Below, piece by piece: positions 4,172-28,494 of a stretch of 32,627 nt of DNA (positions within the stretch are counted from its first letter, which is position 1; each line of letters begins with the position of its first letter). The stretch is from the sequence record SRR20825006_2217; one strand, given 5' to 3'. A program made the position numbers and the translations under genes. Below the pieces are notes generated by a model that worked only from the letters and a program-made list of their open reading frames with translations, made no database searches and had not been told where the DNA came from.

Positions 4172-4530
4172 CCCGACAGCTCCTCGCGCTCGCGCTCACG
4201 CTGATCATCGAGCTCCCCTGCGCCTATCCCTTTGGCGCCAAGATCAGCCGCGAGCGAGAGGAGCCACGCTGGCGTTGGCCAGTGATTATCCTATCAGCCT
4301 CATTGCTCACTCACCCCTTCGCGTGGTGGGCAAATGAGGTTGGCCTTATCGCGCTGCCCTTCTGGCAGCGCGCCGCGATCATCGAAGTAAGCGTGGTGAT
4401 TCTGGAGGCGATACTCTATCGCTTCGCGCTCCCCTTGCAGGCAAAACGCGCCATCGGCGCATCGCTCCTGGCCAATAGCGCGAGCTTTGGCTTCGGGCTC
4501 TTGCTCTACGCGCTCGGGGTAGCGATTTAG
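4168..4530 (+). CDS. Small integral membrane protein (~4 TM), unknown function
   Basis: GTGA start/stop overlap with the upstream lipoprotein gene. Hydrophobic helices carry the motifs LTLIIE, LLTHP, IEVSVVILE and LANSASF. Confidence 0.8.
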   Translation: MTRQLLALALTLIIELPCAYPFGAKISREREEPRWRWPVIILSASLLTHPFAWWANEVGLIALPFWQRAAIIEVSVVILEAILYRFALPLQAKRAIGASLLANSASFGFGLLLYALGVAI

Positions 4531-4540
4531 TTTCAGGTGC

Positions 4541-5602
4541 TCAACGAGATTCGGAAGAGCTCGAAACGAGCGCGCTGAGCGCGATCATCAGGATCGGGAC
4601 CTCGATCCAGGCATGCACGGCTGCGGCCACGCCATACACCGATCTCGCGATCTTGAAGTCGAAGCAAAACCCGACAAACAACACCGCGCTCGCGCCCACG
4701 ACGGCGAACAAGAAGAGCGCATCGCGCGAGCCGAGGCTCTCGGCTTCTGAGCCGGGAGCTTTCTCGTCCTCCGAAGCCATCGACGCCGCCCCGGGTTCGC
4801 TCGCTCGCGCCAGGCAACGCGGCAAGACGTGAATCACCGCCGCGTAGTGCATGACCTGCGCGAAGACCACCGCAGAGAATGCGTGCTGCGCGCTCGCCAG
4901 GCCGTGCCACTGCCGAGGCAGATAGGCCGAGAAGTGGTCGTAGAGCGGCCCTGTGGGCAGCGGCGTGAAGTCTGGCGCGTACACCCCGAGCTTCATCAAC
5001 CACACGGCAGGTACGCCGCTCGCGATAAACAGCGGGATCATCACGAACACGGCCACCGAGAGCGCCATGACCGCGCCGCGCGATCGAGATGGCGCGACCT
5101 CGACCAAAAACCCCATCGGGGTCAGGTTGTGAAGCACCGCGAGCAAGAGGAGCGTATGAATAGGGGTGACGAGCAAGCCGACCACGAGCCCCACCACGAG
5201 AAGCGCGCTCGCGGCAAAACCCGCGCGGCTCACGCGCCAGATGACGGGGAGCGCGCAGAGCGCGAGCGCGACGACCAGCGCGAGCTCGAGGTTCGTCGCC
5301 AGCGCGCCTTCGATCATGCCCGAGAGCTTGCCGATCCTCAGCCCGACCACACCTGTCAGCAGCAGCGTCAACGCCGCGAGCAACCAGCGCTGCAGGCGCT
5401 GACCGAAGCGAGCGCGCACGAAGCGCATCTCGCTCATCACATGCGCGAGCCCGAACAGCGCCAGCGATAGCGTGTACGTGAGCAACGGGAAGCCCACGCT
5501 GGCGATCATGGCAGCGAGCAGCGCCGAGGCGAAGACGCCAGCGCGCCAACCTCGCGTCAAGGAGAGCGGAAAGGGAGACTGTGTCGTGGAGATCGAGCTC
5601 AC
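4541..5602 (-). CDS. Polytopic membrane protein with His motifs (putative metal-dependent membrane enzyme)
   Basis: GTG at 5602 overlaps the upstream TGA (GTGA), which is more plausible than the 5719 start. About 9-10 hydrophobic segments, with motifs FGLAHVMSE, LHNLTP, FAQVMHY and VHAWIE. Confidence 0.75.
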   Translation of the reverse strand: MSSISTTQSPFPLSLTRGWRAGVFASALLAAMIASVGFPLLTYTLSLALFGLAHVMSEMRFVRARFGQRLQRWLLAALTLLLTGVVGLRIGKLSGMIEGALATNLELALVVALALCALPVIWRVSRAGFAASALLVVGLVVGLLVTPIHTLLLLAVLHNLTPMGFLVEVAPSRSRGAVMALSVAVFVMIPLFIASGVPAVWLMKLGVYAPDFTPLPTGPLYDHFSAYLPRQWHGLASAQHAFSAVVFAQVMHYAAVIHVLPRCLARASEPGAASMASEDEKAPGSEAESLGSRDALFLFAVVGASAVLFVGFCFDFKIARSVYGVAAAVHAWIEVPILMIALSALVSSSSESR

Positions 5603-5928
5603 GAGGCTGTCTGAGTGCTCATCGGGGAAGGTTCGCAGGCAGGCTTCTCGCGCCTGGCAAACCCGAGCAAGGAGAGCCCGGTCGCGAGCGCGATAAACCC
5701 GATGAGGTTCCCGGCGCAACCTCTGGAGGCATCCTCTTTTGGCTGCTCGCTGATGACCTCCTCGGAGGCATCCGGCGACACCGGCTCGTCAGCCTCATTT
5801 AAAGGAGGAGTTTGCCAGTTTTCGAACGAGCCAGGGTCGATCACATCAGCATGCGCCATGATCGGGGCGATGCACGCGAAACAAGCCGCGAACAAGGCCA
5901 TCGAAATCCGTGCGCGAAGAGATGACAT
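5599..5928 (-). CDS. Small secreted protein with C-terminal Cys/TM/basic anchor (MYXO-CTERM-like)
   Basis: GAGGA RBS, signal peptide ending AHA/DVIDPG, acidic linker, then RGCA + TM helix + RR. Confidence 0.75.
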   Translation of the reverse strand: MSSLRARISMALFAACFACIAPIMAHADVIDPGSFENWQTPPLNEADEPVSPDASEEVISEQPKEDASRGCAGNLIGFIALATGLSLLGFARREKPACEPSPMSTQTAS

Positions 5929-5931
5929 GAA

Positions 5932-6396
5932 TCAATCCTCGCGGCGACGTCGCGTGAGCCCGAGGAGCAAGAACCCGAGGAGGAACGCGCCGAAGGGGAT
6001 GCTGGCGCTCGAAGCCTGCGCGCAGCCACGCTGCTTCGGGGCATCCTCGGAGCCGGTCTCCGTATCAGTCGAGGTCTCGCCGCCTGTCTCGGAGCCGGAC
6101 GTGTCCGCGGGCTCCTCGGCGGTGGTCGTGTTGTTGGCGGGCTCTTCGGCCTGTGGCTCGGCGTTCGGATCGCAGGTCAGGATCGTGCTGCAATCCTCGC
6201 TCCCGTCTGGCGTGGGGCGACAACGCTTGCCCTCGACGCAGGCGCCGTCTTCGCCGTTGATACTACAGGCGTCACCGAGCTCTTTATTCGAGCAGGACTC
6301 CTGCCCTGGCGAGATGAGGTCGGCGAATGCAGCAGATGGCAACGTGATGAGGGCGCCAAATACGAGCAGGAATACACAGAGCAAACGTTGGGGCAT
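5932..6396 (-). CDS. MYXO-CTERM-type surface protein with 6-Cys domain
   Basis: AGGA RBS before ATG 6396, signal peptide ending AFA/DLISPG, a C..K..GD.C......G.C motif, an acidic T/E/G stalk, and the tail RGCAQASSASIPFGAFLLGFLLLGLTRRRRED. Confidence 0.85.
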   Translation of the reverse strand: MPQRLLCVFLLVFGALITLPSAAFADLISPGQESCSNKELGDACSINGEDGACVEGKRCRPTPDGSEDCSTILTCDPNAEPQAEEPANNTTTAEEPADTSGSETGGETSTDTETGSEDAPKQRGCAQASSASIPFGAFLLGFLLLGLTRRRRED

Positions 6397-6660
6397 GACG
6401 ATCATCCTGGATGAATTTGCCGCTGGAGAGTGTTCCTCCAGGAGGCAGTGAAGAAATGGATGGCTCGAACCTGTAGTCGCGATCGTCTACAGAGGTAACA
6501 CGCCTCTCCCGATCACACCAGACGAGAGCAACTTCGATGCTTGTACGATCGATGACAGCATATCGCGTCGCGCTCTGCTTGACCCGTCACGAGCAAAGTG
6601 TTCAGATCGGAATACTCGAACCAAAACAAGACGCTGCAGAGCGCAGCGAGGAGAGGCAAA

Positions 6661-7497
6661 ATGGCGACATGGTACGACGACACCGCAGGCAAACCCAGCC
6701 AGAACCCCCTGGGAGGGCAGCTCTCCGCGGAGCAGGTGCAGCTCAAGCGGGTCAACCCCTTTGGCGTGGACATCATGGGGATCTTCAATCAGGCCTTCGA
6801 GAAGGTCAAAGCCCAGCCAGCCGAGGCGATCGGTTACCCGCTGGTGATCATGGCCATTCAGATGGCGGTTCACATGGCGATCAACATCATCATGCAATTC
6901 GCGATGTTCTTTGTCGCCTTTGCTGGCGCGGCGGCGAGCAAGGCGCATGAGATGTTGGGCATGGCCGTCATGATCGGCGCGGGCGTGATCATCTTCGCCG
7001 TCGTGTTCGTCTTGATGATGGCGATGCAGGCGCTCGTGCAGGGCGCGCTCAACATCGCGTGGCTGCGCCTCGCGCGTGGTCAGTCGCTCAAGCTCGAGCA
7101 CCTCTTCGAGGTCAAGCGCTTCGCCAAGCCTCTTATTGTCGGCTCCATCTTGCTCCCTCTGGGCGTGACGCTCGGGTACATCTTCCTGATCATCCCCGGA
7201 ATCATCTTCATGCTCGGCTGCTTCCTCTACTCCTTCGTGGTGGTGGACAAGAACCTCTCTGGCGTCGAGAGCCTCAAGGCCGCCTGGGCGCTCACCGATG
7301 GCCACAAGCTCGACCTGTTCCTGCTGATGCTCCTGATGAGCCTCGTGAACATGCTCGGCATGATGGCATGTGGTGTGGGCATGATCGTCACGATCCCCAT
7401 GACCTTTGGCGCGATCGCCTACTTCTACGACTCCATCGCCGAGCCAGGGAACGCCTATCTCCAGGATGGCGAGGGCCTCGACGACGTCTTTGCCTGA
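6661..7497 (+). CDS. Integral membrane protein (DUF975/YciC-like)
   Basis: GGAGAGG RBS before ATG 6661. Multiple TMs with the motifs LIIPGI, VVVDKNLSGVESLKAAWALTDG and ACGVGMIVTIP. Confidence 0.75.
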   Translation: MATWYDDTAGKPSQNPLGGQLSAEQVQLKRVNPFGVDIMGIFNQAFEKVKAQPAEAIGYPLVIMAIQMAVHMAINIIMQFAMFFVAFAGAAASKAHEMLGMAVMIGAGVIIFAVVFVLMMAMQALVQGALNIAWLRLARGQSLKLEHLFEVKRFAKPLIVGSILLPLGVTLGYIFLIIPGIIFMLGCFLYSFVVVDKNLSGVESLKAAWALTDGHKLDLFLLMLLMSLVNMLGMMACGVGMIVTIPMTFGAIAYFYDSIAEPGNAYLQDGEGLDDVFA

Positions 7498-7566
7498 TAC
7501 ACCCTGGTCAAAACACCCTCTATCTACTATCTTCATGGGGGCAATTTTGCCCCCATGGAGCCCCCC

Positions 7567-8931
7567 ATGCCATCGCCAACCTCACGCATCTTCACGCCAT
7601 TGTTTCTCTGCCTGACCCTCGCGAGCGCGCAGCTCGCCTGCGGCGGAGAACGAGAGGGCGGCGCCATCGACAGCGTCATCGACAGGGGCCGCGATCTCTT
7701 CACAGACGATGAGGGCGAAGGGGGCCGAAGAAGCAAACCTCCCAAGGTCGAGATCTACACCAGCATCGCGCGATCGGATGGTCGCTACACCATGGTCGGT
7801 CACGCCAGCGATGATGGTGAGGTGCGCGGCGTGCAGGTCGTCGCCGAGTTCATCTGCCCAGGCGTCGAGGCCAAGTGCGTGCAGGGACAAAAGCTGCGTC
7901 AGATCCATGATCTGACGCCCCCCTTCGACAACTTCGTGTGGGAGACCACCCTCCCCCAGGAGCGCATCACCTACGAGGTACGCGCCGCGGACGAGGATGG
8001 CTTCGGGCAGCCCTACAAGGTCACCGTCCTGCGCGATGACCCCGACGATAATGATCACTACATCTTCGAGGAGGAGGACCTTCGCGAGTTGCGCCGTAAA
8101 CAGGGCACCTCGATCGTGGGCAACCTCTCGATCGAGGGCCTCGATGGCCTCCAGGACCTCCAGAGCTTGCGTGGTCTGGAGCAGGTCACCGGCACGCTAT
8201 CGATCTCGGGGAACCCCGACCTGCTCGACCTTCGAGGGTTGGATCAACTCGTGCGAGTCAAGGAGCTAAGGATCGCGGGCAACGCGAACCTCGCGGACGC
8301 GAGCTCGCTGCGCAGGTTGCGCGATGTGGAGTTTATCTACATCGGAGGCACGAGCTCGCTCGGAAACCTCCAAGGGCTCTCGAACGTCTCCCACCTCCCA
8401 CGCTTGACGCTCGCCGGGGTCATCGGGCTCGATGATCTTTCCGGGATGGACAGCCTGGAGAGCGTGGACCTGCTCGAGATCGAGGCATCGCGAGGGATCA
8501 CGAACCTCTCGGGATTGGATAACATCAAGACGATCGACACCCTCTCGCTCTCGGCCAATCGCAACCTCATCGATCTCGTCGGGTTGTCACCGGACCTCTC
8601 CCTGCGCCACCTCGTCTCCTACCGAAACATCGCGCAGCTCTCCTTCCGAGGTTTTCCGCCAAACCTCGAGGAACTCAGCACGTTGAGCATCGAGGACGCT
8701 GACGCCATGGAGCAGCTCTCCGGCCTCGAGGGGTTGCGGCGAGCGCACCGTATCTCGATCGTGCACAACAACCTGCTCGAGAGCCTCGATGGCCTCGCTG
8801 GCGTGGAGAGCGTCGAGCAGTTCGAGATCACCAAGAACAAGATCTTGCCGCAGTGTGATGCCAAGCAATTCGCGGCCCAACGCAGCGATGATCCTCGCGT
8901 CGCGCAAAACGCGGGCGCGAGCTGCGACTGA
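7567..8931 (+). CDS. Lipoprotein with receptor L-domain/LRR-like beta-helix repeats
   Basis: GGAG before ATG 7567 and lipobox QLAC. About 11 repeats of ~22 aa (LxIxxNxxLxxLxGLxxLxxV) with a Cys cap LPQC...C. Confidence 0.8.
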   Translation: MPSPTSRIFTPLFLCLTLASAQLACGGEREGGAIDSVIDRGRDLFTDDEGEGGRRSKPPKVEIYTSIARSDGRYTMVGHASDDGEVRGVQVVAEFICPGVEAKCVQGQKLRQIHDLTPPFDNFVWETTLPQERITYEVRAADEDGFGQPYKVTVLRDDPDDNDHYIFEEEDLRELRRKQGTSIVGNLSIEGLDGLQDLQSLRGLEQVTGTLSISGNPDLLDLRGLDQLVRVKELRIAGNANLADASSLRRLRDVEFIYIGGTSSLGNLQGLSNVSHLPRLTLAGVIGLDDLSGMDSLESVDLLEIEASRGITNLSGLDNIKTIDTLSLSANRNLIDLVGLSPDLSLRHLVSYRNIAQLSFRGFPPNLEELSTLSIEDADAMEQLSGLEGLRRAHRISIVHNNLLESLDGLAGVESVEQFEITKNKILPQCDAKQFAAQRSDDPRVAQNAGASCD

Positions 8932-11326: not shown

Positions 11327-13816
11327 ATGAACGAGGATCAAGCATCTGGAGACCTGGTCGAAGCCCCTCGCCCAGACTCTGCTGCCTTATCCAAAACCAT
11401 CGATCTCACCCCTGCCCCCTCGACCTTCGACTTCGAGGACGCAGACGTGAGTCAGAGCATCACCCCCTCCGGTCAGCGAAGGATCGCGGGGAGGTACGAT
11501 ATCCTCGGCTTATTGGGGAGCGGTGGTATGGGTAACGTCTACCGGGTGCGCGATACGGCCCTGGACGAGGAGATCGCGCTCAAGACCTTGCGCGGGGACC
11601 TCTCAGACTCCGAGCAAGCGCTGACGAGGTTTCGCCGCGAGGTCAAGCTCGCCAGGCGCGTCACCCACCCGAACGTGGCGCGCACCTTCGACATCGGCAC
11701 GGATGGGACGCTGACCTACCTGACGATGGAGTATATCGAGGGGGAGCCGCTCACCATCCACGGCAAGCGCCTGGCAAAGGGGAGCCTGACGCAACTTATC
11801 GAGCTGATGGTGCAGGTCGCGCGCGGCCTCGAGGCCGCGCATGAAGCGGGCGTGATCCACCGGGATCTCAAACCAGCGAACATCATGATCGCCTCCACCG
11901 GACGAGCCGTCATCACGGACTTCGGGATCGCGCGCGCGAGCAGCGGGCACGCCACCGCCTCGATGCTCAACACCGGGAGCGCGGGCCTCGTCGGGACGCC
12001 GCTCTACATGGCCCCCGAACAGGTTGAAGGGGTGGAGGATATCGACTTTAGAGCCGACATCTACGCCTTTGGCTGCATCCTCTACGAGCTGCTCGCGGGG
12101 GCGCCGCCCTTTATCGCGGACTCGCCAGTGGCCGTCGCCATCGCGAGGTTGATGAGGCCCGCGCCCAGGCTCTCCACAGGAGATTACCCGAGCGCTCTTG
12201 TCGACCTCGTGGCGCGCGCGCTCGAGCGTGATCCTGGCGCGCGACATCATAACGTCGGCGCGCTCGCTGCTGGCCTCGAAGAGATCCTCGGGACGCTCGA
12301 GACCGACGCGGTCGGGCGCCCTGCTCTCAAGCTCGAGAACACCTTCGAAGACTTCGACGACGCGACCCAGGTCATCGAGCACCTCCAACATCAAACACAA
12401 ACCTCGCTCCAAAAGACCACCGTCGCCGTGCTCCCGTTCATCAACCGTGACATGGACGAGTCGTGCTACGTCTCGGAGTGTCTGACCGAGGAGCTCGTCG
12501 GGGAGCTCTCGATGTCTCCGACGCTGCGGGTCAAGCCTGCGAGCAAGGGACACACGAGGGGAGAATCACTCACCCGATTGGGGAAACAACTCGGCGTGGA
12601 CTTGCTCGTCTCGGGCAGCCTGCGCCGCACGCGCGATGACAGGTTGCGCGTGCGCGTCGCGTTGACTTCCGTCGAGGATGGTTTTCAGATCTGGGGCGAT
12701 AAGTTTTTGGGCGATCACCAGGACCTCTTTCAGATCGCCGAGGACGCCGCCGAAGCGATCGCCGAGGCGCTGCGCGCCAAGGTCACGCAAGGGCGCCCGG
12801 ACGCCCTGACCGATCCTGTGGCCATCGATCTGTACATGCGCGCGCGCCACCACGCGCAGCTCAACTGGTATAACGGTATGGAGGAAGGGATCGAGTTGTT
12901 CAGGCGCGCGCTCGAGCGCGCGCCTGATGATCCTCGCATCCTGACGGGCATGGCCACCACGCTCGCGCGCCAGACGTTCTTCACGCCGGAGAAATCAGTC
13001 GAGCTCTTGACGGAAGCGGCCGAGCACGCCAAAAACGCCGTCGAGCGCGCGCCTGACTGGCCAGATCCTCACTTCGCGCTCGCCATCGTCGCGTACAACC
13101 GGGGTGATATCATCGGCACCGAGCGCTGCTGTCGCGCGGCGCTCGCTCGCCACCCCGAGCACCTCGAGAGCCTCGATCTGCTCGGACGCGTCCTCTCGGA
13201 GATGGGCCCTCTCGATGAATCCAGACTCCACCTCGAGCGCGCCATCGCTATCAACGAAGGGTTGATGCGCGCCTTCTCCGACCTACAGCGCGTCTACGCG
13301 CTACAAGCGGACTGGGAAGCATACGACAGGTTGCTCGAAGCTCGCCCCGAGATCCCTCCAACCTACAAGCGCTCGGTCGAAGCGGTCGACTTCCGGCTCG
13401 GCATGTGGCGAGGAGAACACGACGTCCTCCCGCTCGGGCCGGATGACGAACAGAGCATCAAGGAGCTGCCCACGGGCATGTTCCCGATCGCGCGCGAGCT
13501 CTCCATCGCCATCACGAACAACGAGCCATTTCCAGTCAGATTGCTCGATAACCTCATCGAGATGGGGAGGATGGCGACCCCAGGGAGTCAGCAACAATTG
13601 CTGGTCTTGCAAATCGCCACCGAGTTTGCATCCTATGCACAACTCGAGGATCAGTTCTTCGACGCGCTCACCACTGTCATCGACATGGGGTTGCGCGATC
13701 TGATGTGGCTCGAACGGGCGCCTATTTTCGACGCGTTCCGTGACGACCCGCGTTTTCAGAGACTGGTCCAACGCGTCGCCCTCAAATACCAGGCGCGCGC
13801 ATTGACCCTCGCCTGA
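11327..13816 (+). CDS. Serine/threonine protein kinase with TolB-like (VAVLPF) and TPR regions
   Basis: Motifs LGSGGMGNVY, ALK, HRDLKPAN, DFG, GTPLYMAPEQ and DIYAFG, followed by TVAVLPF and TPR-like helices. No TM seen. Confidence 0.93.
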   Translation: MNEDQASGDLVEAPRPDSAALSKTIDLTPAPSTFDFEDADVSQSITPSGQRRIAGRYDILGLLGSGGMGNVYRVRDTALDEEIALKTLRGDLSDSEQALTRFRREVKLARRVTHPNVARTFDIGTDGTLTYLTMEYIEGEPLTIHGKRLAKGSLTQLIELMVQVARGLEAAHEAGVIHRDLKPANIMIASTGRAVITDFGIARASSGHATASMLNTGSAGLVGTPLYMAPEQVEGVEDIDFRADIYAFGCILYELLAGAPPFIADSPVAVAIARLMRPAPRLSTGDYPSALVDLVARALERDPGARHHNVGALAAGLEEILGTLETDAVGRPALKLENTFEDFDDATQVIEHLQHQTQTSLQKTTVAVLPFINRDMDESCYVSECLTEELVGELSMSPTLRVKPASKGHTRGESLTRLGKQLGVDLLVSGSLRRTRDDRLRVRVALTSVEDGFQIWGDKFLGDHQDLFQIAEDAAEAIAEALRAKVTQGRPDALTDPVAIDLYMRARHHAQLNWYNGMEEGIELFRRALERAPDDPRILTGMATTLARQTFFTPEKSVELLTEAAEHAKNAVERAPDWPDPHFALAIVAYNRGDIIGTERCCRAALARHPEHLESLDLLGRVLSEMGPLDESRLHLERAIAINEGLMRAFSDLQRVYALQADWEAYDRLLEARPEIPPTYKRSVEAVDFRLGMWRGEHDVLPLGPDDEQSIKELPTGMFPIARELSIAITNNEPFPVRLLDNLIEMGRMATPGSQQQLLVLQIATEFASYAQLEDQFFDALTTVIDMGLRDLMWLERAPIFDAFRDDPRFQRLVQRVALKYQARALTLA

Positions 13817-13872
13817 CGACACATCCACGAACTCGTCGTGAGGCGGATTTTGTCCCTCTCGACGAGAACACC

Positions 13873-14919
13873 ATGCCACACATACCTCATGGGACCTCGC
13901 TGGCAATCGGCCTTTGCCTTTGCCTCTGTGTCCTCACGAGCGCCTGTCAGCCAGAGGATCAAGATCCTCCAGGTCAAACCACCAACGCCGAACCTGGCAA
14001 CAACACGACGCCACCCCCGGAAGATGAATCACTCCCCTTCCAGGATGATCCTTCCGCGCGAATGTGGCGCAACTCCGCGAGCTGGTATCCTCAAGACTAC
14101 CTCGAGCTCGATAGCACGATCTCGGGACTACTCGACGAGCACGGCGCATCTCCAAAGCGAAAGGCGCTCGGGATCATCGCGCCACACGCTGGCGTCGCCA
14201 ACTCGGGGCACGTCGCCGCCGCGGCCTATGGCCGCGTCGAGGTGCCTGATCTGGTCATCCTGCTCGCCCCCAAACACCACAACGAAGGCGCATCCCCCGC
14301 GGCCTGGAACGAAGGCCCCATCCTCGTCCCCGGGCACGCGCTCGCGACGCGCACGGATATCACAGACCAGCTCCTGATGGAGCTCGGCGAGGATGAAGTG
14401 GTCGCGGACCGAGGGGCTTTCGAGGCGGAGAACATGCACCCCTACGAGTTGCAACTCCCCTTCCTGAGCACCGCGAACCCGGACGTCGAGCTCGTCTCGG
14501 TGGCCTTCTATGATCTGTCCGTCAAGCACTTCGACGGGTTCGATCGCGCGCGCATCGAAAAATGGGGCAAGGCGCTCGCAGAGATCGTTCGCGAGCGTCG
14601 CATGCAAGGAGAGGAAGTGCTGATCGTGGCGAGCACAGACCTCGTGCACCGCATCCCGCTCGAGGAGCAAAAAATGCAGGATGCGATCTTGCTCGATCAT
14701 ATCGAGGCGCTCGATATCGACGGACTCTATCAAACGATCACCGAGGACGAGCTCTCGATGTGTGGGGAGATCCCCGTCTCGATCCTGATGCAGGTCGCGC
14801 TCGAGCTCGGCCACGAAGACGCCGAGATCGTCGCGCGCGGCTCGAGCCATGAAACACTTATGAATGCAGAGAGCGTGGTCGGTTATGGCGGCGCTGTGAT
14901 TTGGGAGGATACGCAATGA
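13873..14919 (+). CDS. amrB: MEMO1 family / AmmeMemoRadiSam protein B homologue with predicted lipoprotein signal
   Basis: Motifs SWYP, IAPHAG..SG, LAPKHH, HPYELQLPFL, ASTDLVH, MCG and VVGY. N-terminal LAIGLCLCLCVLTSA-C followed by a P/T/D linker. Confidence 0.85.
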   Translation: MPHIPHGTSLAIGLCLCLCVLTSACQPEDQDPPGQTTNAEPGNNTTPPPEDESLPFQDDPSARMWRNSASWYPQDYLELDSTISGLLDEHGASPKRKALGIIAPHAGVANSGHVAAAAYGRVEVPDLVILLAPKHHNEGASPAAWNEGPILVPGHALATRTDITDQLLMELGEDEVVADRGAFEAENMHPYELQLPFLSTANPDVELVSVAFYDLSVKHFDGFDRARIEKWGKALAEIVRERRMQGEEVLIVASTDLVHRIPLEEQKMQDAILLDHIEALDIDGLYQTITEDELSMCGEIPVSILMQVALELGHEDAEIVARGSSHETLMNAESVVGYGGAVIWEDTQ

Positions 14920-16211
14920 ACATACGAACACCACGACTTTTGATGCTCTTGCTTCTGGCGCTCGCGATGGCGTCTGCGCCCGCATGCCGAGAAGAGGAAA
15001 ACCCTGAAGATACGATGACCCCAGGCGAAGAGGTCATCAATACGGATTACACCGGAGAAGAAGAACCTCGCGCCGTGGTCCCAGAGGATGCCTCGCTCGA
15101 AGAGATCGACCTGCCACTCGAGCAGGTCGGAGAGGACAGCGGGAGCGGTGGGATGACCTACGCCGCCATCCTCTCGGGCTATTACATCCTGCGCGTCCAA
15201 CAGGACGACGGGTTGTTCGGTTACGAGTACACCATCGCCGACGGGAGTTGGTCGGAAGACAACGTGATCCACCGCCAGTGCGGCTCGACGATCACGCAGG
15301 CGTGGATGTATCGCGTGACAAAACGGGAGGAGTTCCTGATCTCGGCGCAGCGCGCGCTGATCGCCATCTACGCGCAGACCGAAGAGCTCGATGATGGGAG
15401 CCTGTTCCTGCGCGATCTCGGCGGCGTCTCACTGCTCGCCATCGCGACCTCTCTGGTGGCCATCCATGGCGGCGTCGACGAGTACGACGAGGAGCTCGAG
15501 AAGCTCGGCGCCTATATCCTCGCGCGCGTCGACGAGGACGGAAAAATCTCTGGCGGCGACAGCCTCTTTCTAAAGCAAGGTCAGGCGATGCAGGCGCTCG
15601 AACACCTGCACGCCTATACCGGGGAAGAGGTCTACCTCGACGCGCTCGAGCGCTCCACGAAGTGGCTCATCGCCAACCCCGAGGAGCATAAGTATGGCCC
15701 CTACATGGCGCTCTGGAACAACGAGCCGATGACCTACCTCTACAATTTGCGACCTGATCCCGAGATCGCGGAGCTCGTCTACGAGCTCTCCGACAGGATC
15801 GTCGCGCAGCAACACACGCCCGAAAATCACGACAAGGAGAGCTACATCGGCGGGTATTACATCGACCCCGAGAAGCCCGTGCCGAGCTGGTCGACTTGCC
15901 TGTTCCTCGAGGCCGTGGCCGATGGGTTGCGCATGGCGCGCATCGCTGGCGATGAAGAGCGCCTCGAGACCTACGCCGAGAGCTCCACGCTCGCCGCGAA
16001 ATACCTGCTCGACCTTCAATTCAGAAAGGGCGAGAAGCAGGACGCGCATGACCCTGACTTCATCAACGGGGGCGTGCCATTCACCAAGAGCGGCACGGTG
16101 ATTCGCGTGGATGTGCCACACCACGTCGCCAACGCGGTCCTCAAGACGATCGAGTACCAGCACCTCGAGGACTTCCCTGGACGCAGGGAACTCGATGAGA
16201 TCGCGCCCTGA
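14916..16211 (+). CDS. Hypothetical lipoprotein, probable alpha/alpha-toroid (six-hairpin-like) fold
   Basis: ATGA overlap with the upstream stop, GGAGG RBS and lipobox APAC. Helical repeats YILRVQQDDG, YILARVDEDG, IVAQQ and YLLDLQ, plus the motifs NVIHRQ and IRVDVPHH. Confidence 0.75.
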   Translation: MNIRTPRLLMLLLLALAMASAPACREEENPEDTMTPGEEVINTDYTGEEEPRAVVPEDASLEEIDLPLEQVGEDSGSGGMTYAAILSGYYILRVQQDDGLFGYEYTIADGSWSEDNVIHRQCGSTITQAWMYRVTKREEFLISAQRALIAIYAQTEELDDGSLFLRDLGGVSLLAIATSLVAIHGGVDEYDEELEKLGAYILARVDEDGKISGGDSLFLKQGQAMQALEHLHAYTGEEVYLDALERSTKWLIANPEEHKYGPYMALWNNEPMTYLYNLRPDPEIAELVYELSDRIVAQQHTPENHDKESYIGGYYIDPEKPVPSWSTCLFLEAVADGLRMARIAGDEERLETYAESSTLAAKYLLDLQFRKGEKQDAHDPDFINGGVPFTKSGTVIRVDVPHHVANAVLKTIEYQHLEDFPGRRELDEIAP

Positions 16212-16234: not shown

Positions 16235-18205
16235 TTACTCCGCGTCGTCGGGCTCGATGCGGAAGAGCAAGACCTTGGCCGAGACCTGCTCGCCAGTCTT
16301 GCAGCCAACCTCCATCACCTCGCCAGCGACTGGCGTCGTGAGGTTGTGCTCCATCTTCATCGCCTCCAACACACCGAGCCGTTGCCCTGGCTCGACGCGG
16401 TCGCCCACGGCGACCTCGACCTGGAGGATCTTTCCTGTCATTGGCGCCAAAATCCTGCCATCCGCGCCGGGCTCGACCCGGCGCGGGCGGCGCAGCGCGT
16501 CCTCTGTCACCCAATCGTTGGCGCCATCGCGAACATAAAGCGTGGCTCCGGCGAGCAAGGCGTCCACGTTCTGCTGCACGCCATCGAGCTCGACTCTGGC
16601 GCGGGTCTCGAGCGGATCGAACGAGAGCAAGCGCACGGTGTGTTCGCCATGCCCCTCGACCTCGACTTCGTAGTGATTCTCCGCGTGAAGCGAGAGGCGC
16701 ACATCATAAAGGTCTGCGCCAAACTCCAGCCTGAGCAACGACTCCGAGCGCCCCGTGGAAGACCACATCCTGGTCACGCCAGCCTCGGTGCTCCCGCGAA
16801 GTTTGGCGAGCAGGACACCGCACAACGCGATACTCCCCGAGGTTGGCGTGGGCGCGGCCGGTCCCCCCTCGAACGCCGAGGCGATAAATGCCGTGGTCGC
16901 CTCTCCGGCGGCGAACGCCTCGTGGCGCAGGCAATCGACCAGAAACCTTCGGTTGGTCGTCGCGCCGAGGATCACGGTGTCCTCGAGCGCACGGATCAAC
17001 CTGCGGCGCGCGACCTCGCGGTTTGCGCCGGAGGCAATGATTTTGGCGATCATGGGATCGTAATGGGGGGTGATCGACATCCCGGACTCGAGACCGTCAT
17101 CGACGCGCACGCCCTCTCCTTCTCCAGGAGACCAGCGCAAGACATCGCCCGTCTGAGGCAAGAAGCCACCAGCGGGATCCTCGGCGTAAAGGCGCACCTC
17201 GATCGCGTGACCGGTGAGCGAGACCTCCTCCTGGGTTACAGGCAACGGCGCGCCCGCGGCGACATCGAGCTGCCAGGCGACGAGATCGAAACCAGTGATA
17301 CACTCGGTCACAGGGTGCTCGACCTGAAGGCGAGTGTTCATCTCGAGAAAGTAGAACTCGCCGCTCGCGTCGAGCAGAAACTCGACGGTGCCCGCGCCCA
17401 CGTAACCGATGGCTCGCGCTGCCGCTGTGGCGGCTGCGCCCATTTGCTCGCGGATCTCTGGTGATACCGCAGGAGACGGCGCCTCCTCGACGACCTTTTG
17501 ATGACGGCGCTGGATCGAGCAATCGCGCTCGCCAAGATGAATCGCGTTGCCGTGAGTATCGGCAAAGACCTGGATTTCGACGTGCCGCGCCTGCATGACC
17601 GCGCGCTCGAGTAAGAGCTTGCCCGAGCCAAACGCACTCACCGCCTCGCTGCGAGCGCTGGCGATCGCGCCCATCAACTCGCTCTCCTCGTGCACCAGGC
17701 GCATCCCACGACCGCCACCCCCGGCGCTAGCCTTCACCATCAGCGGATAACCGATCGATGCGGCAGCCTTCGAGAGCGCCTCATCGCTTTGATCCTCGCC
17801 ATGGTAACCAGGAACGCAGGGGACGCCCGCCTCGACCATGCGACGTTTGGCCTCCATCTTCGACCCCATCGCGTCGATGGCGCTCGCTGGAGGACCGACA
17901 AACACGAGGCCAGCCTGCTCGAGCGCGCGCGCGAAGTCCGCATTCTCCGAGAGGAAGCCATACCCGGGATGCACCGCCGTGGCGCCCGTGCGTTGGCAAG
18001 CCTTAAGAATACGGTCAACGTTCAGATAAGACTCGGATAACGCAGCAGGTCCAATACAGATCGCCTCGTCTGCCTCTCGTACGTGAGGAGAGGGGGCGTC
18101 TGCTTCAGAATACACCGCGACGGTGCGGTAGCCGAGCGCGCGAGCGGTGCGAATGACCCGGCGAGCGATCTCGCCACGGTTGGCGATCAGGAGCTTGTCG
18201 AACAT
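16235..18205 (-). CDS. Biotin-dependent acyl-CoA carboxylase alpha subunit (biotin carboxylase + BCCP; geranyl/methylcrotonyl-CoA type)
   Basis: Motifs LIANRGEIA, HPGYGFLSEN, GGGGRGMR, RDCSIQRRHQK, EMNTRLQVEH and the biotin attachment site EAMKM. Confidence 0.95.
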   Translation of the reverse strand: MFDKLLIANRGEIARRVIRTARALGYRTVAVYSEADAPSPHVREADEAICIGPAALSESYLNVDRILKACQRTGATAVHPGYGFLSENADFARALEQAGLVFVGPPASAIDAMGSKMEAKRRMVEAGVPCVPGYHGEDQSDEALSKAAASIGYPLMVKASAGGGGRGMRLVHEESELMGAIASARSEAVSAFGSGKLLLERAVMQARHVEIQVFADTHGNAIHLGERDCSIQRRHQKVVEEAPSPAVSPEIREQMGAAATAAARAIGYVGAGTVEFLLDASGEFYFLEMNTRLQVEHPVTECITGFDLVAWQLDVAAGAPLPVTQEEVSLTGHAIEVRLYAEDPAGGFLPQTGDVLRWSPGEGEGVRVDDGLESGMSITPHYDPMIAKIIASGANREVARRRLIRALEDTVILGATTNRRFLVDCLRHEAFAAGEATTAFIASAFEGGPAAPTPTSGSIALCGVLLAKLRGSTEAGVTRMWSSTGRSESLLRLEFGADLYDVRLSLHAENHYEVEVEGHGEHTVRLLSFDPLETRARVELDGVQQNVDALLAGATLYVRDGANDWVTEDALRRPRRVEPGADGRILAPMTGKILQVEVAVGDRVEPGQRLGVLEAMKMEHNLTTPVAGEVMEVGCKTGEQVSAKVLLFRIEPDDAE

Positions 18206-18274
18206 GGTCTTTCCGTGGAGTTGTATGGCGGTGACAAACGAGCGCGTATGATGCGTGAACGAGCTGACAAAGGA

Positions 18275-19894
18275 TCACATGCGACCGACGCCGAAGGTGT
18301 TCGGGTGGAGGCCGCGGCGCTGCCCCTCGCGGCAGATCGAGAGCGTCGCGGCCAACACCTTTCGCGTATCGCGAGGATCGATCAGGCCATCGTCCCAGAG
18401 CCTCGCGGTCGCATACAACGCGCGCGACTCGTCGTTGATCTTGTCGATGATGAAGTCCTTCATCCCCTTCAGGAAATCGGCGTCGGGCTCCTGCCCGAAG
18501 CGCGCCATCTTCTGGCGCGTGACGATCTCCATCACGGTCGCCGCCTGCTCGCCGCCCATCACCGCGATCCGGTTGTTTGGCCAGGCGAAGATGAAGTTCG
18601 GATCGTAGGAGCGTCCGCACATGCCGTAATTGCCTGCGCCAAAGCTCGCGCCGATATGGAGCGTGATCTTTGGCACGGTGGTATTCGCCACGGCCTGGAT
18701 CATCTTGGCGCCATGTTTGACGATGCCGCCCTGTTCCATCTCCTTGCCGACGAGGTAACCCGTGGTGTTCTGGAGGAAGATGAGCGGCGTATTCGACTGC
18801 GTGCAGAGCTGGATAAACTGCGCGGTCTTCGCGGCGCCGTCCGCGTCGATCGGCCCATTGTTTCCAATGATACCGCAGGCGTAACCCTCGATGTGTGCGT
18901 GACCGCAGACGGTGTGTTCGCCGTAGAGCTCCTTGAAGGCGAGGAACCGCGAACCATCCACGATCCTGGCGATGACTTCGCGCACATCGAAGGGCTTGCG
19001 GTAGTCGGTGGGGACCACACCACAGAGCTCGTCTGGCGAGTAGAGTGGCTCGTCGAAGGTGCGCGCTGGCTTGTGCGCGAGATCGTCGTTCCAGCCGAGG
19101 TTGCCGATGACCTCGCGCGCGATGCGAATCGCGTCGGCGTCATTCTCGGCCATGTACTCGCTCACGCCCGACACGGTCGTGTGCATCTGCGCGCCGCCAA
19201 GCTCCTCGTCCGTGGCGACCTCGCCGGTGGCTGCCATCAGCAGCGGCGGCCCCGCGAGGAAGACCTTGGCGCGCTCCTTGACCATGATCACGTAATCGGA
19301 GAGTCCCGGAATGTAGGCGCCGCCAGCGGTCGAGGAGCCGTGCACCACGGTGATCTGCGGGAGCCCCATCGCCGAGAGCCGCGATTGGTTGTAGAAGGAC
19401 TTCCCGCCATCGACAAAGATCTCGGATTGATAATTGAGGTTGGCGCCACCGGACTCGATGAGGTTGACGCAAGGGAGCTTGTTCTTCATCGCGATCTCTT
19501 GACCGCGAAGGCTCTTCTTTAACCCCATGGGCGCGATGGTGCCCCCTTTGATGGCCGAATCCGAAGCATTCACCATACAACGCACGCCTTCGACGTAGCC
19601 GATGCCGATGATGCCACCGCCGCCCATGACGGTGTCCTTGCCATCATCGTCGTGCATGGCGAGGCCAGCGAGCGTCGAGATCTCGAGCCACGGAGAGCCA
19701 TCGTCGAGCAGCGCCGAAATGCGCTCCCTTGGCAGGAGCTGATCGCGCTTTCGAAACTTCTTCTTCTTGCTCGAAGAGAGGTCGCGCACGCGCTGCTCGA
19801 GTGCGCGGAACTCGTTCACCAACGCGAGCATCTCCTCGCGCTGCTGCTGGAACTCATCACTGTTGGTCCGGACTTTCGATTCGATGGCAGGCAT
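18275..19894 (-). CDS. Acyl-CoA carboxylase beta (carboxyltransferase) subunit, AtuC/MccB-like
   Basis: Motifs LLPRERI..LLD.GSP, ESGGANL, GSSTAGGAY, EELGGA.MH, SFGAGNYGMCGR and WDDGLIDPRDTR. Confidence 0.93.
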   Translation of the reverse strand: MPAIESKVRTNSDEFQQQREEMLALVNEFRALEQRVRDLSSSKKKKFRKRDQLLPRERISALLDDGSPWLEISTLAGLAMHDDDGKDTVMGGGGIIGIGYVEGVRCMVNASDSAIKGGTIAPMGLKKSLRGQEIAMKNKLPCVNLIESGGANLNYQSEIFVDGGKSFYNQSRLSAMGLPQITVVHGSSTAGGAYIPGLSDYVIMVKERAKVFLAGPPLLMAATGEVATDEELGGAQMHTTVSGVSEYMAENDADAIRIAREVIGNLGWNDDLAHKPARTFDEPLYSPDELCGVVPTDYRKPFDVREVIARIVDGSRFLAFKELYGEHTVCGHAHIEGYACGIIGNNGPIDADGAAKTAQFIQLCTQSNTPLIFLQNTTGYLVGKEMEQGGIVKHGAKMIQAVANTTVPKITLHIGASFGAGNYGMCGRSYDPNFIFAWPNNRIAVMGGEQAATVMEIVTRQKMARFGQEPDADFLKGMKDFIIDKINDESRALYATARLWDDGLIDPRDTRKVLAATLSICREGQRRGLHPNTFGVGRM

Positions 19895-22965: not shown

Positions 22966-23011
22966 ACGCTCTCGAATAGAGCGCCAAGGTTCTCCCCAAA
23001 TGCATCACGGC

Positions 23012-23045
23012 GCCCCGTCCGCTCCTCTCTCAGAGGGGGCGGGGC
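23012..23045 (+). terminator. GC-rich hairpin downstream of tesB (possible terminator or stabiliser)
   Basis: GCCCCGTCC..CCTCT-CTC-AGAGG-GGGCGGGGC. There is no U-tract. Confidence 0.3.
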
Positions 23046-23275
23046 CAGCAGAACAACTCCGACCACGCTTCGATAACCAAAGCACCAGCGCTCCCCTTCT
23101 TTGCTGGCTCTGCTTTCCCCCATGGCACCTCGACAAGGCCACATGCTCGCGTGCTCTTCGCGCCATGGACAAGTGCATTCTGTCACCGCGAGGCAGCACC
23201 TCGATGACATCGCCCGCTCGCCACATCCTCGCCACATGAAACGATGTCGCGCGACGCCAAAAACCAAAAACACTA

Positions 23276-23305
23276 TTGAAATATCACAACCCTGCAAAAT
23301 AAAAT
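23276..23305 (+). promoter_or_regulatory. Putative sigma70 promoter of the AraC gene
   Basis: TTGAAA (23276-23281), 18-bp spacer, TAAAAT (23300-23305), within an A-rich tract. Confidence 0.4.
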
Positions 23306-23355
23306 AAAAACCCCAAACAGGGAAAACCAGGCACACAAGAAAAAACAACAAAAAC

Positions 23356-24258
23356 ATGCATCAAATAACGAGACTCTTAACATCCTTCAAAAGCAGCCTG
23401 GAAGACAACCGGGATGCCGGATTGGCTCAAACAAAAGTCCCAGGCGTGACATTCTTTTGGGATGAAAAATCGAGCGAGCGCTCGCCATTACTTTATGACA
23501 CGGGTTTGGTCATCGTCGGACAGGGCACAAAGGTTGGATACTTTGGCAAGCATCGCTTTGTATCCGACACAGATGCATGCCTGGTCCTCGGAGTCCCCGT
23601 ACCATTTGAATGTGAAGCGTTCGGGACCCAGGACGAACCGCTTCTTGGCATCCGCATCGACCTCGATCTCGTCGTGCTCAACCGGCTCGTGTTAAGGTGC
23701 AAGGATAGGCTCGAGTTGGAAAAGAGCGGCACCCACTTTGGTGTTGGCAACGTCCCCGTTCAGGGACAACTAAAAGCCGCCATCACGAGGCTTCTCGAGT
23801 TTTTGCCCAACTCCATGGACGCAGAAATCCTCGGCGAGAGCGCGGTGGATGAGGTGATCTACAGGGTATTGCAAAGCGACGCGGGTCAGCTCCTCTACTC
23901 GCTGACACAGCATCACACGACTCACGTCAAGATCGCCCAATCACTCGAGCGGATTCACGCAGGATATCACGAGGCGATCAACATCGAAGAACTGGCACGT
24001 AGCTGCTCGATGAGCACCTCCTCCTTCTACAGGGCGTTCAAGGAAGTCACCGGCGAAACACCGCTCCAGTACCTGAAGAAGGTACGGCTCATCCAGGCCA
24101 AGAGCATGCTCGTGTTCGATGGAATGGGGGTCGAGGAGGTCGCCTACGAGGTTGGCTATTCGAGCGCGTCGCAGTTCAGCCGCGAGTTCAAACGCTATTT
24201 TAATGTCCCCCCTTCCGAGGCGGAGTCACTCCCCTACAACAGCACCTTCCTCGATTAG
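23356..24258 (+). CDS. AraC family transcriptional regulator (YqhC-type N-terminal domain)
   Basis: N-domain IVGQGTK. HTH region MSTSSFYRAFKEVTGETPLQYLKKVRL and VAYEVGYSSASQFSREFKRYF. Confidence 0.93.
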   Translation: MHQITRLLTSFKSSLEDNRDAGLAQTKVPGVTFFWDEKSSERSPLLYDTGLVIVGQGTKVGYFGKHRFVSDTDACLVLGVPVPFECEAFGTQDEPLLGIRIDLDLVVLNRLVLRCKDRLELEKSGTHFGVGNVPVQGQLKAAITRLLEFLPNSMDAEILGESAVDEVIYRVLQSDAGQLLYSLTQHHTTHVKIAQSLERIHAGYHEAINIEELARSCSMSTSSFYRAFKEVTGETPLQYLKKVRLIQAKSMLVFDGMGVEEVAYEVGYSSASQFSREFKRYFNVPPSEAESLPYNSTFLD

Positions 24259-24834
24259 TGCGCTGCTCCTTTGGAACGCATGCCAACCTATCTACGCTCG
24301 AAGAGCACTCATACTTCCCACACGTTAACTGTCTAACAGCTTTAATTTTCGCCTTATTACAAACAACACCTAAATCATCTCCTCGAGCGGAGCATATAGC
24401 ACCACCGAGAAGACCTGGAAGGTTCGAGTCTCTTTTTATATTTTAACGTGAATTCTTAATATCCAGCCGGGTGTTTATCTGAGCAAAAACACCGCCCATC
24501 ATGCTCGATAACATATCGAAAACAACCCCCGACGCCCACCTGTTTACCTCGGCATCTTTTGTGAGGTTGTCTTTTGCCGAGTGATATTATGACGTCGTGA
24601 CATCTATAAATCCTTTCATCTTTGCCCACGACTCTATCAGCGCTGGCCCGGACCAGATCATGCTCGACATTCGATCTGGCCCGGGCTGGAACAGGTTGCG
24701 CTCACGCCCGACGACACCATCCGGCAAACGGTATGGTCACTCGAGGGCCAAAGCAGCCATGTGCTCGAGGACGCGCGGGGCACACCTCGAGGGGCACTGG
24801 CCGCCTCTCGTCGGTCATGGCAGGCAAGCTTGCA

Positions 24835-25203
24835 TCAAAGGACCAACTGGTCCTCGGCTTGGCTCAACTTGAAGCGAGCCATCGCGAGGTTGGACCTCTT
24901 CCGATCGAGGATGAGGTAGATAAAGACGTTGGGGTTCCTCTCGAGGACTCGGATCAGGTGGTACTGATCATCCAACGTGACGAGGATGTCCTCGATCCTT
25001 CCATCGATCTTGAGGGCTCGCATCGCCCGCAGCTTGGCCTTGATCACATCAGCGTTTGCAGCGACAGCGAGCTCAGGGTCGATGTCATCATTGCCACCCA
25101 ACGTTCCCATCGCCATGCCGCTCTCCGCGTGGCCCACTGCCACCGCGATGAATCCTTCAACCTCGTGAAGCCCGGCCAACACTTCCTTGACATTCTGAGC
25201 CAT
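24835..25203 (-). CDS. Roadblock/LC7-like small protein
   Basis: 122 aa with ESGMAMG, ELAVAANADVIKAK, IEDILVTLDDQYHLIR and LILDRKRSNLAMAR. GGAG RBS. Confidence 0.8.
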   Translation of the reverse strand: MAQNVKEVLAGLHEVEGFIAVAVGHAESGMAMGTLGGNDDIDPELAVAANADVIKAKLRAMRALKIDGRIEDILVTLDDQYHLIRVLERNPNVFIYLILDRKRSNLAMARFKLSQAEDQLVL

Positions 25204-26561: not shown

Positions 26562-27161
26562 ATGCGAGCACATCGATCGACCCCACGAGGCGCACGAACG
26601 CTCGGTGTGCTCGCCGCCACGAACATGCTTTGGGCCGCAGCGCCTGTCGGATGCCATCGCACCGATCAGGCCCACACGGCGACGACCGTGGCCACGACAA
26701 TCATCGAAGCGCCGTCGTCGCGGCATCCCGAAATACAACCCGAAACCGAGCGAGCGACCACGGAGAGCGCTCGCGAAGCTACGGCGGAGAGCGAAGAGAT
26801 GAAGATCCTTATCCTTGTTGATGGCGAGCAGCTTGGCGCGACGTTGGAGGATAACCCGACGGCACGAGCATTCGCAGAGATGCTCCCGCTGGAGTTCGAA
26901 CTCAGCGACTACGCCTCGACCGAAAAAATCAGCCACCTCGACGCAAAGCTCACGACACGAGACGCTCCCGAAGGACTGGACCCCACCATAGGTGATATCA
27001 CCTACTACGCTCCGTGGGGGAACATGGCGATCTTCTATCGTGATTTTGGCTACGCTCGCGGCCTCGTCAAAATCGGACACATCGATTCGGGGATCGAGAA
27101 GCTCGGACAGAAAAAGACAGACTTCACGGTGCGCTTCGAGCGAGCATCCACCTCCGAATAG
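26562..27161 (+). CDS. Cyclophilin-like fold protein with N-terminal extension (possible lipoprotein)
   Basis: Motifs ATLEDNPTARAFAEMLPL, EK and GDITYYAPWGNMAIFY. N-terminal LGVLAATNMLWAAAPVG-C, with an alternative start at 26799. Confidence 0.8.
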   Translation: MRAHRSTPRGARTLGVLAATNMLWAAAPVGCHRTDQAHTATTVATTIIEAPSSRHPEIQPETERATTESAREATAESEEMKILILVDGEQLGATLEDNPTARAFAEMLPLEFELSDYASTEKISHLDAKLTTRDAPEGLDPTIGDITYYAPWGNMAIFYRDFGYARGLVKIGHIDSGIEKLGQKKTDFTVRFERASTSE

Positions 27162-27182
27162 CCAGGAATAGACAATATCCCC

Positions 27183-27243
27183 TCAGGAGAACGAAGGCCG
27201 GGCAGGCGCGTTGCACGCACCTGCCTGGCCTTCGTTCTCCTGA
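27183..27243. repeat. Long intergenic inverted repeat (28-bp arms)
   Basis: TCAGGAGAACGAAGGCCGGGCAGGCGCG-TTGCA-CGCACCTGCCTGGCCTTCGTTCTCCTGA, with 26/28 Watson-Crick pairs. Confidence 0.85.
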
Positions 27244-27304
27244 AAGACCTGACCACCGACGCCTCACGTCCCCAGGAGAAGATGGATGAGGATAAGTCAG
27301 TGGC

Positions 27305-27348: not shown

Positions 27349-27374
27349 CTCCCCGACGACAGCGAGGATTTGTC

Positions 27375-28486: not shown

Positions 28487-28494
28487 GACTCCAG

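Follow-up and report, generated by a model that had tools for sequence, protein, structure and literature searches.

Whether a protein of the Memo/AmrB family can work outside the cytoplasm, and with what it would work there, is the question raised by a stretch of DNA from sequence record SRR20825006_2217 (32,627 nt; this whole stretch is called the window below). Two of its genes encode a Memo-family protein with a predicted export leader (hereafter the Memo protein) and, directly downstream, a second predicted lipoprotein (hereafter the partner; coordinates in Table 1). Conservation of Memo and AMMECR1 proteins extends from archaea to humans, and both have links to disease; to our knowledge no reaction has been assigned to either of them, and an RNA base was once proposed as their substrate. 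The original prediction, made from the letters of the window alone, had read the two genes as a two-component extracytoplasmic offshoot of the family. In the general picture that we regard as probable, they form a co-transcribed, exported two-protein module consisting of a periplasmic metal enzyme and a substrate-binding toroid, with the leaders of both proteins and the adjacency of their genes conserved among relatives.

The Memo protein was recognised by Pfam PF01875 over residues 70–342 (E = 2.7e-32; 112.5 bits, cut-off 27) and by NCBIfam TIGR04336, AmmeMemoRadiSam system protein B (164.9 bits, cut-off 26), and fell under the cut-off of the MEMO1 equivalog model NF001987 (127.3 versus 295 bits). 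An AlphaFold2 model obtained from 25 sequences (mean predicted local distance difference test score, pLDDT, 91.1; predicted template modelling score, pTM, 0.85) showed a helix at residues 8–23 within the leader, a low-confidence tether and a domain beginning at about residue 50. Its best structural match was MEMO1 (7l5c, chain D; E = 1.7e-21, template modelling (TM) score 0.82), followed by LigB-type class III extradiol dioxygenases such as LigAB, DesB and 2-aminophenol 1,6-dioxygenase (Foldseek E values of 6.4e-10 to 1e-6, TM only ~0.45–0.57). The superfold is common to the latter enzymes and the Memo protein, but the third metal ligand of the Memo protein is Cys rather than Glu, as it is in MEMO1 (PMC11081632).

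The same source describes MEMO1 as binding Fe or Cu through H49, H81 and C244 (PMC11081632), and alignment to structure 7kq8 identified His105, His135 and Cys297 of the Memo protein as their equivalents. Column conservation was compared between 26 exported and 23 cytoplasmic Memo sequences. All three ligands are kept in the exported set (His105 in 26/26, His135 in 26/26 and Cys297 in 24/26), and both sets have in common Arg63, Tyr72, His189, Glu192, Asp256, His259 and the pair G337-Y338, the H..E and D..H motifs being invariant or nearly so throughout. Every metal-site motif named in the original prediction was found, with PHAG at residues 104–107, KHH at 134–136, MHPYE at 188–192, D..H at 256–259 and CG at 297–298, and the two versions it had singled out as unusual, MHPYE and LAPKH, do deviate from the usual EHS.E and GPNH. 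Fold, the 2-His-1-Cys ligand set and the two motifs are those of AmrB/MEMO1 (PDB 3bcz, 7kq8 and 7l5c), whereas the second shell is altered: Phe183 is present in 25 of the 26 exported proteins at a position occupied by His in 21/23 cytoplasmic AmrB, and Glu188, found in all 23 of the cytoplasmic sequences, is lost in the exported clade and replaced by Met in the window protein. Gains in the exported clade include Trp145 (26/26), Pro149, Gly154, His155 (21/26), Asp214, an 8-residue insertion at positions 216–223, and Glu299 beside the Cys ligand (26/26); Met306 and Trp344 are likewise clade-specific.

A second difference from AmrB/MEMO1 is the predicted leader with its lipobox Cys and tether, which none of the 23 cytoplasmic comparators has. 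A hydrophobic leader followed by Cys was present in 14 of the 15 closest Memo homologues returned by protein search (304–349 aa, 39–93% identity), the sole exception, P0008, being a shorter gene call of a protein 93% identical to that of the window. The next homologues in line were cytoplasmic AmrB proteins of ~267 aa, at most 37% identical and starting directly at the domain. Leader and Cys were also found in all seven partner homologues from the protein search, and in the copies from 13 genome loci, from a second gene pair in genome G004 and from eight further genomes. Collectively, the Cys column is kept in 25/26 exported Memo proteins (Cys25) and in 18/18 aligned partners (Cys24). The hydrophobic stretch, the TSAC motif and the P/T/D linker ascribed to the Memo protein, and the APAC motif ascribed to its partner, are thus all present, and the proposed export is supported by orthologues of both proteins that carry the signal peptide rather than lack it.

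Lipoboxes follow a PROSITE-type pattern, [LVI][ASTVI][GAS]C. The Memo leader of the window matches it, and in the loci from the initial scan of genomes 7 of 12 Memo proteins and 11 of 13 partners conform to it strictly; the sequences outside it retain a hydrophobic run and Cys, with one deviation each. Both products would most likely be lipid-anchored through the N-terminal Cys. Beyond the Cys, the Memo tether is poorly ordered in the model (pLDDT ~48–69 over residues 21–50) and varies in length and sequence among orthologues. The acidic linker of the partner, otherwise disordered, has Pro51, Pro67 and Asp74 invariant in 18 sequences (near ...EPR.VVP... and ...LPL.Q.GED), and this conserved linker could be a docking motif.

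Public sequencing runs provided a further view of the leaders. The window or part of it is contained in 19 public-run rows, six of which are RNA libraries. Two contigs from RNA libraries, at 13811–14013 (X14) and 13816–14100 (X16), run from the end of the intergenic region across the start codon, the Memo leader and the tether, and a third of 328 bases (X14, 14659–14986) spans the junction of the two genes; runs X15 and X18 yielded small parts only, and uncovered stretches carry no meaning. These contigs are a weak indication of transcription across the leader and the gene junction, because RNA libraries may contain DNA and the contigs come with neither strand nor transcript ends. Cleaner evidence comes from the sequence differences: of the 30 listed, 26 are at third codon positions and 27 are synonymous, and the leader variants were synonymous without exception (2/2 in the Memo leader, 1/1 in that of the partner).

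Several features count against export as proposed. The n-region of the Memo leader (MPHIPHGTS) contains neither Lys nor Arg, while that of the partner does contain Lys/Arg; the partner lipobox has Pro at position −2, off the strict pattern, and the junction between ASA and P is a possible alternative signal peptidase I site; in loci L053 and L054 the leaders of both proteins comprise only ~9 residues (e.g. MLPLLLLAC) with a stop codon just upstream, which is unusually short for lipoprotein signal peptides; and the G+C content at third codon positions (GC3) is 0.56 and 0.61 in the leader and linker parts versus 0.79 and 0.84 in the domains. Some of these features would also suit a cytoplasmic AmrB with a mis-called start, translated from Met64 and preceded by an untranslated hydrophobic stretch: the n-region lacks basic residues, the low GC3 of 0.56 covers Memo residues 1–63, and P0008 was itself called with a shorter N-terminus. 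However, Arg63, the residue preceding Met64, is invariant in 26/26 exported and 23/23 cytoplasmic proteins, and ATG 13873 is the only in-frame ATG, GTG or TTG upstream of it, which argues for translation from ATG 13873 rather than from a start downstream of the Cys. Leader and Cys are moreover kept in orthologues down to 30–45% identity, both variants in the Memo leader are synonymous, and RNA-library contigs cover the leader. We consider a mis-called start highly improbable, and retain the reading of two exported proteins.

The exported Memo proteins are set apart from the AmrB proteins of the canonical system by descent as well. A quick maximum-likelihood tree was computed from 53 sequences; it is unrooted, and its cytoplasmic sample is limited to the sequences returned by the searches. 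A branch of length 1.07, with a Shimodaira–Hasegawa-like approximate likelihood-ratio test (SH-aLRT) value of 100, separates all 26 exported proteins from the rest. Five related genomes were inspected for the AmmeMemoRadiSam gene set (AmrA, AmrB and the radical S-adenosylmethionine (SAM) protein AmrS, TIGR04337): AMMECR1 was present in four of the five, AmrS above its cut-off in four of the five, and Memo in all five, with two to three matches each. The canonical set in these relatives sits elsewhere, beside a different, cytoplasmic Memo; for instance, genome G001 carries amrS, amrB and amrA side by side on a different contig, and that AmrB has no leader. Genome G004, a metagenome-assembled genome (MAG) that may be incomplete, showed two exported pairs and neither AMMECR1 nor AmrS above cut-off. 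Since canonical Memo and amr genes lie elsewhere in related genomes, the exported Memo protein is an extra paralogue, independent of a nearby canonical set. The window agrees with this arrangement: within its 32.6 kb, no AMMECR1 or AmrS-type radical SAM gene was detected by Pfam among 26 chosen open reading frames (ORFs), and six-frame tblastn with the AmrS and AmrA of a relative gave a best E value of only 0.25. The description of the protein as an offshoot, encoded apart from AmrA and radical SAM genes, was borne out for this window by a single, long-branched clade distinct from the AmrB of the same genomes.

The pairing of the two genes was followed in a scan of one genome per species, which returned 13 loci with a partner gene, distributed over Bradymonadaceae, Nannocystaceae, Kofleriaceae, Polyangiaceae and other Myxococcota MAGs. 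In 11 of them the partner is immediately preceded by a Memo gene of the same strand, the two others, L008 and L010, having no Memo gene within the available flanking DNA; L008 is a second partner copy in a MAG that also carries L002, and one locus, L013, is frameshifted. A separate sample of 301 genomes from the phylum of G001 contained a partner match in 16 genomes at E ≤ 1e-20 and in 9 at E ≤ 1e-70. Eight of these nine genomes were new, none of their loci duplicated the earlier ones, and in all eight the Memo gene is adjacent on the same strand (upstream in seven, downstream in one). Including the window, an exported Memo gene thus adjoins the partner in 21 of 23 loci, although the module is patchy, being present in ~3% of the phylum sample. 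Start and stop codons overlap by the ATGA that the original prediction had noted, and a 4-bp overlap or a gap of a few bases also occurs in L001, L002, L007 and L017. No third conserved neighbour emerged from all-against-all clustering of 14 loci, nor any conserved neighbour family from Pfam analysis of 40 chosen neighbours in 10 loci, several of the genomes used being incomplete MAGs. Because no other neighbour is conserved, we take the unit to be a two-gene module, in keeping with the two components first proposed. Prediction of a complex between the two proteins gave an interaction prediction score from aligned errors (ipSAE) of 0.00 in two runs in which the supplied alignments were unused and partner residues 1–59 had been removed; part of the conserved linker of the partner was thus missing, and the result is uninformative on binding either way.

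Variants of the module were also observed. Locus L002 (3567–6951) has two tandem exported Memo genes ahead of one partner, locus L058 (3193–5426) has the reversed order with the partner first and Memo downstream, and genome G004 contains two complete pairs, the second with a 4-bp overlap, alongside which locus L017 (1210–3512) stands among the variants.

No Pfam or NCBIfam family matched the partner. Its AlphaFold2 model, built from seven sequences, is of middling confidence (pLDDT 67, pTM 0.70), with low-confidence segments at residues 1–78 (pLDDT < 50), 301–321, 369–388 and 418–431, and consists of helical hairpins from residue 77 to 414. Foldseek returned 68 matches in the PDB at E ≤ 0.001, with GH76 mannanases and AGE-family epimerases heading the list and the GH76 structure 6y8f in first place (E = 7.7e-6). 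Comparison by VIA gave Z = 24.6 to cellobiose 2-epimerase 4z4j (root-mean-square deviation 3.8 over 301 residues), Z = 24.5 to mannose isomerase 5x32, Z = 24.4 over 293 residues to GH76 6shm, and Z of ~20–22 to GH88/GH105, terpene cyclases and others. On the strength of these models the partner is an (alpha/alpha)6 toroid, as had been proposed from its sequence, and no single family stands out. It has the toroid fold in common with GH76 alpha-1,6-mannanases and AGE-family enzymes (cellobiose 2-epimerase, mannose isomerase, YihS), but is only 10–15% identical to them and below every Pfam threshold. A profile of seven partners searched against the PDB gave a best E value of only 0.23, the wider toroid family profile matched AprG as well as GH76 and cellobiose 2-epimerase, though over only 40–80 residues (E = 1.6e-7 to 3.2e-6 overall, and 1.6e-7 to 2.9e-6 for the GH76 and AGE enzymes), and the protein atlas returned only unnamed clusters for the partner (best 0.92), with a 13% lead to GH127.

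The relatives of the partner extend well beyond the Memo-linked loci. When 1.84 billion representative sequences were searched with a profile built from 18 partners, 2345 matched at E ≤ 1e-3, of which 1190 reached E ≤ 1e-10 and 66 reached E ≤ 1e-30, and many of the matched proteins are 560–630 aa long with the toroid at the C-terminus. A Pfam scan covered 91 of the 149 new toroid-profile matches listed; 18 of the 91 carry an N-terminal AMMECR1 domain above cut-off fused to the toroid, and none of the 91 has Memo (PF01875) fused to it. Two fusions also pass the AmrA cut-off of 99 in TIGR04335 (P0077 with 119.9 bits and P0094 with 152 bits), and a home-made hidden Markov model of the fusion N-terminal domain matched 33 of the 82 profile matches of at least 500 aa. 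The fusions align to the partner profile with E values of 1.8e-44 to 1.9e-33, the best among them over ~330 positions each (P0070, 1.8e-44; P0073, 1.5e-40; P0074, 1.2e-38; P0077, 1.3e-37). The original prediction had pointed out that the N...R and R.D...H motifs of the partner resemble those of barrel domains attached to AMMECR1 proteins; since the profile matches include AMMECR1-toroid fusions, this likeness is real. Most of the fusions read carry an N-terminal hydrophobic anchor or signal, P0094 being without one, and no Pfam or NCBIfam model covers their toroid part.

Across 49 diverse toroids, Tyr103, Gly209, Glu332, Gly385 and His403 are invariant, and Arg120, Gly169, Leu228, Trp267, Gln299, Gly312, Gln368, Arg397 and Asp399 are kept in at least 90%. 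The toroids of the AMMECR1 fusions are homologous to the partner and have Tyr, Arg, Trp, Gln, Glu, Gln and R.D...H in common with it; they differ in that the partner has no AMMECR1 domain and carries Gln223 where the fusions have Glu in PGEA. At this position Gln is found in 11/11 Memo-linked toroids, as against Glu in 37/38 of the distant ones, and the partner may therefore be non-catalytic, which speaks against a toroid that processes its substrate. The Memo-linked subfamily has its own Glu270, Trp325 and Arg370. A further point on the negative side is that no Memo gene was found beside AMMECR1-toroid fusions in 31 metagenome loci, although this is weak evidence because most of these loci are short, only nine having at least 5 kb of flank. 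No shared neighbourhood theme was apparent among the fusion loci.

The AMMECR1(-like)-toroid proteins form a large, unnamed family of ~560–630 aa (P0070, P0073, P0074, P0077, P0082, P0090, P0092 and P0094; loci L020–L050). One locus, L021:243-11923, with 29% GC, encodes a leaderless fusion, identical to P0094, in the midst of a DUF362/4Fe-4S gene and four genes for radical SAM proteins. Of these four, the one immediately upstream of the fusion overlaps its start; in NCBIfam it comes closest to a YydG-type peptide epimerase, with a score below cut-off. This arrangement looks like a peptide-maturation cluster. Other toroid architectures include tandem toroids behind a membrane anchor, fusions to a class-V aminotransferase, to PGA_cap with a Mur ligase and to TPR repeats, and a 1133-aa protein with DUF6895 and AMMECR1 (proteins P0063, P0101, P0137, P0124, P0132 and P0095). 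In addition, seven genomes of the phylum sample encode proteins of ~770–790 aa with a weaker C-terminal toroid match (e.g. L059:1879-4182 and L060:3005-5365), in which ~400 N-terminal residues belong to no family and beside which no Memo gene is adjacent.

These observations bear on whether the two proteins act together at all. They might be independent lipoproteins that happen to lie in one operon, the toroid serving as a stand-alone glycan hydrolase, lyase or epimerase and Memo acting elsewhere; the best structural and profile matches of the toroid are carbohydrate enzymes, its relatives occur in many other architectures, and in L008 and L010 the partner stands without an adjacent Memo gene, which also detracts from the module. 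Against such independence, adjacency is maintained in 21/23 loci at 30–50% protein identity with start/stop overlap in several, persists even where the order is reversed (L058), and involves the same toroid family that elsewhere is fused to AMMECR1, the usual partner of Memo. Kept adjacency and fusion to AMMECR1 together make chance sharing hard to argue, and we judge two unconnected lipoproteins to be a distinctly unlikely explanation.

How the module would work can be outlined as follows. Both proteins would leave the cytoplasm through Sec-type leaders and would be lipid-anchored, on flexible tethers, to a membrane surface facing the periplasm. The Memo protein would be a neofunctionalised AmrB/Memo paralogue with a remodelled second shell and a retained mononuclear 2-His-1-Cys site, presumably occupied by Fe or Cu by analogy with MEMO1. 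The central pocket of the toroid may hold or process a polar, probably carbohydrate-containing, substrate of the envelope or the extracellular space, on which the tethered Memo centre could carry out a redox, oxygen-dependent or metal-dependent step. Such chemistry would proceed without SAM, and neither the radical SAM nor the AMMECR1 partner of the cytoplasmic system would take part. Lipidation, physical contact between Memo and partner, catalysis and the nature of the substrate are what we infer here, and the 'envelope or prey-derived' substrate of the original prediction is of the same conjectural kind.

A different role for the same site would be metal handling: the Memo protein would serve in the periplasm to bind Fe or Cu or to hand the metal on, as has been proposed for human MEMO1, with the toroid as scaffold or receptor. 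This would fit the 2-His-1-Cys site retained in the exported protein and the Gln of the toroid subfamily where its relatives have Glu. It would also fit PMC11081632, which describes binding of Fe and Cu by MEMO1 at this site and no detected dioxygenase activity, the latter being unfavourable to catalysis by the exported paralogue. Metal-related genes do occur near two loci (an ArsP permease and an HMA domain near L002, and a protein with a MopE-type Cu-binding motif near L009), but they are not conserved, being limited to 2 of the 10 loci scanned. Moreover, His189, Glu192, Asp256 and His259 are invariant, yet of their MEMO1 equivalents the two that were mutated, D189 and H192, are dispensable for metal binding (PMC11081632), and for this reason catalysis fits better than simple binding. 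Nine polar pocket residues (Tyr103, Arg120, Trp267, Gln299, Glu332, Gln368, Arg397, Asp399 and His403) are, in addition, kept throughout the toroid family, which likewise sits poorly with a mere scaffold. We hold metal handling to be unlikely, and prefer a module in which a Memo metal enzyme acts on the substrate of the toroid.

The features of the two genes and of their immediate flanks are collected in Table 1.

Table 1. Coordinates of the Memo–partner module and flanking genes in the 32,627-nt window
Feature	Position	Strand	Description	Basis
Memo gene	13873..14919	+	Exported Memo/AmrB-family putative lipoprotein, 348 aa	PF01875, TIGR04336, AlphaFold2
Memo signal peptide with lipobox (predicted)	13873..13947	+	Residues 1–25 (...VLTSAC; TSAC = 22–25)	Sequence, conserved Cys
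Memo tether	13948..14043	+	P/T/D/N/E low-complexity, ~residues 26–57	
Memo domain	14080..14898	+	His105, His135, Cys297 and His189, Glu192, Asp256, His259	Pfam envelope 70–342
Overlap of Memo and partner genes	14916..14919	+	ATGA start/stop overlap	
Partner gene	14916..16211	+	Start ATG; predicted exported (alpha/alpha)6-toroid, 431 aa	AlphaFold2, VIA, Foldseek
Partner signal peptide (predicted)	14916..14987	+	Residues 1–24 (...MASAPAC; APAC = 21–24)	
Partner linker	14988..15143	+	Acidic, with short conserved motifs, ~residues 25–76	
Partner toroid domain	15144..16157	+	~Residues 77–414	Helices in AlphaFold2 model; conserved polar columns
Upstream flank	11327-13816	+	Ser/Thr kinase with TPR repeats	Pfam
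Downstream flank	16235-19894	-	Convergent biotin carboxylase and carboxyltransferase pair	Pfam

A promoter scan at the locus found no promoter-like site, and four weak terminator-like sites were rejected as not credible, lying inside genes or in the leader. Elsewhere in the window, G+C content falls to 0.54–0.57 at 23001–25000 and 27001–29000, compared with ~0.62 in the remainder; these stretches hold an AraC-family regulator (23356–24258), a MarR regulator and NAD(P)-binding proteins, and either acquisition or a mere difference in base composition could account for them. The first part of the window (1–7536) contains six sizeable ORFs that had no Pfam match at E ≤ 1e-5 (80–952, 1077–1781, 1829–4171, 4541–5719, 5615–6451 and 6487–7536), and the gene that follows them (7555–8931) encodes an EndoS-type leucine-rich repeat domain.

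A literature search, with most subscription journals outside its coverage, found no paper on exported Memo proteins or on AMMECR1-toroid fusions. Because the toroid is fused to AMMECR1 in one branch and shares an operon with Memo in another, both branches being mostly exported or membrane-anchored, it might be an unrecognised fourth component of the AmrA/AmrB world, and the substrate of Memo and AMMECR1 would then be a cell-envelope molecule held in the toroid pocket. We offer this wider reading tentatively and think it more doubtful than not by a good measure. If it were true, that substrate would be a glycan, a lipid-linked sugar or something similar rather than an RNA base, and the Myxococcota pair would represent a form of the system that dispenses with radical SAM, relies on oxygen or metal chemistry and could be rebuilt from its two proteins in soluble form.

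For the Memo/AMMECR1 system as a whole, the module described here would be a compact and strongly conserved two-gene version without a radical SAM enzyme. The two proteins, if released from their anchors, are predicted to be soluble, and the module would offer a tractable route to the substrate. Through the partner, two independent routes, AMMECR1 fusion and the operon with Memo, connect the system with a toroid family that is large and has no name, and part of the Memo/AMMECR1 system would be placed outside the cytoplasm.

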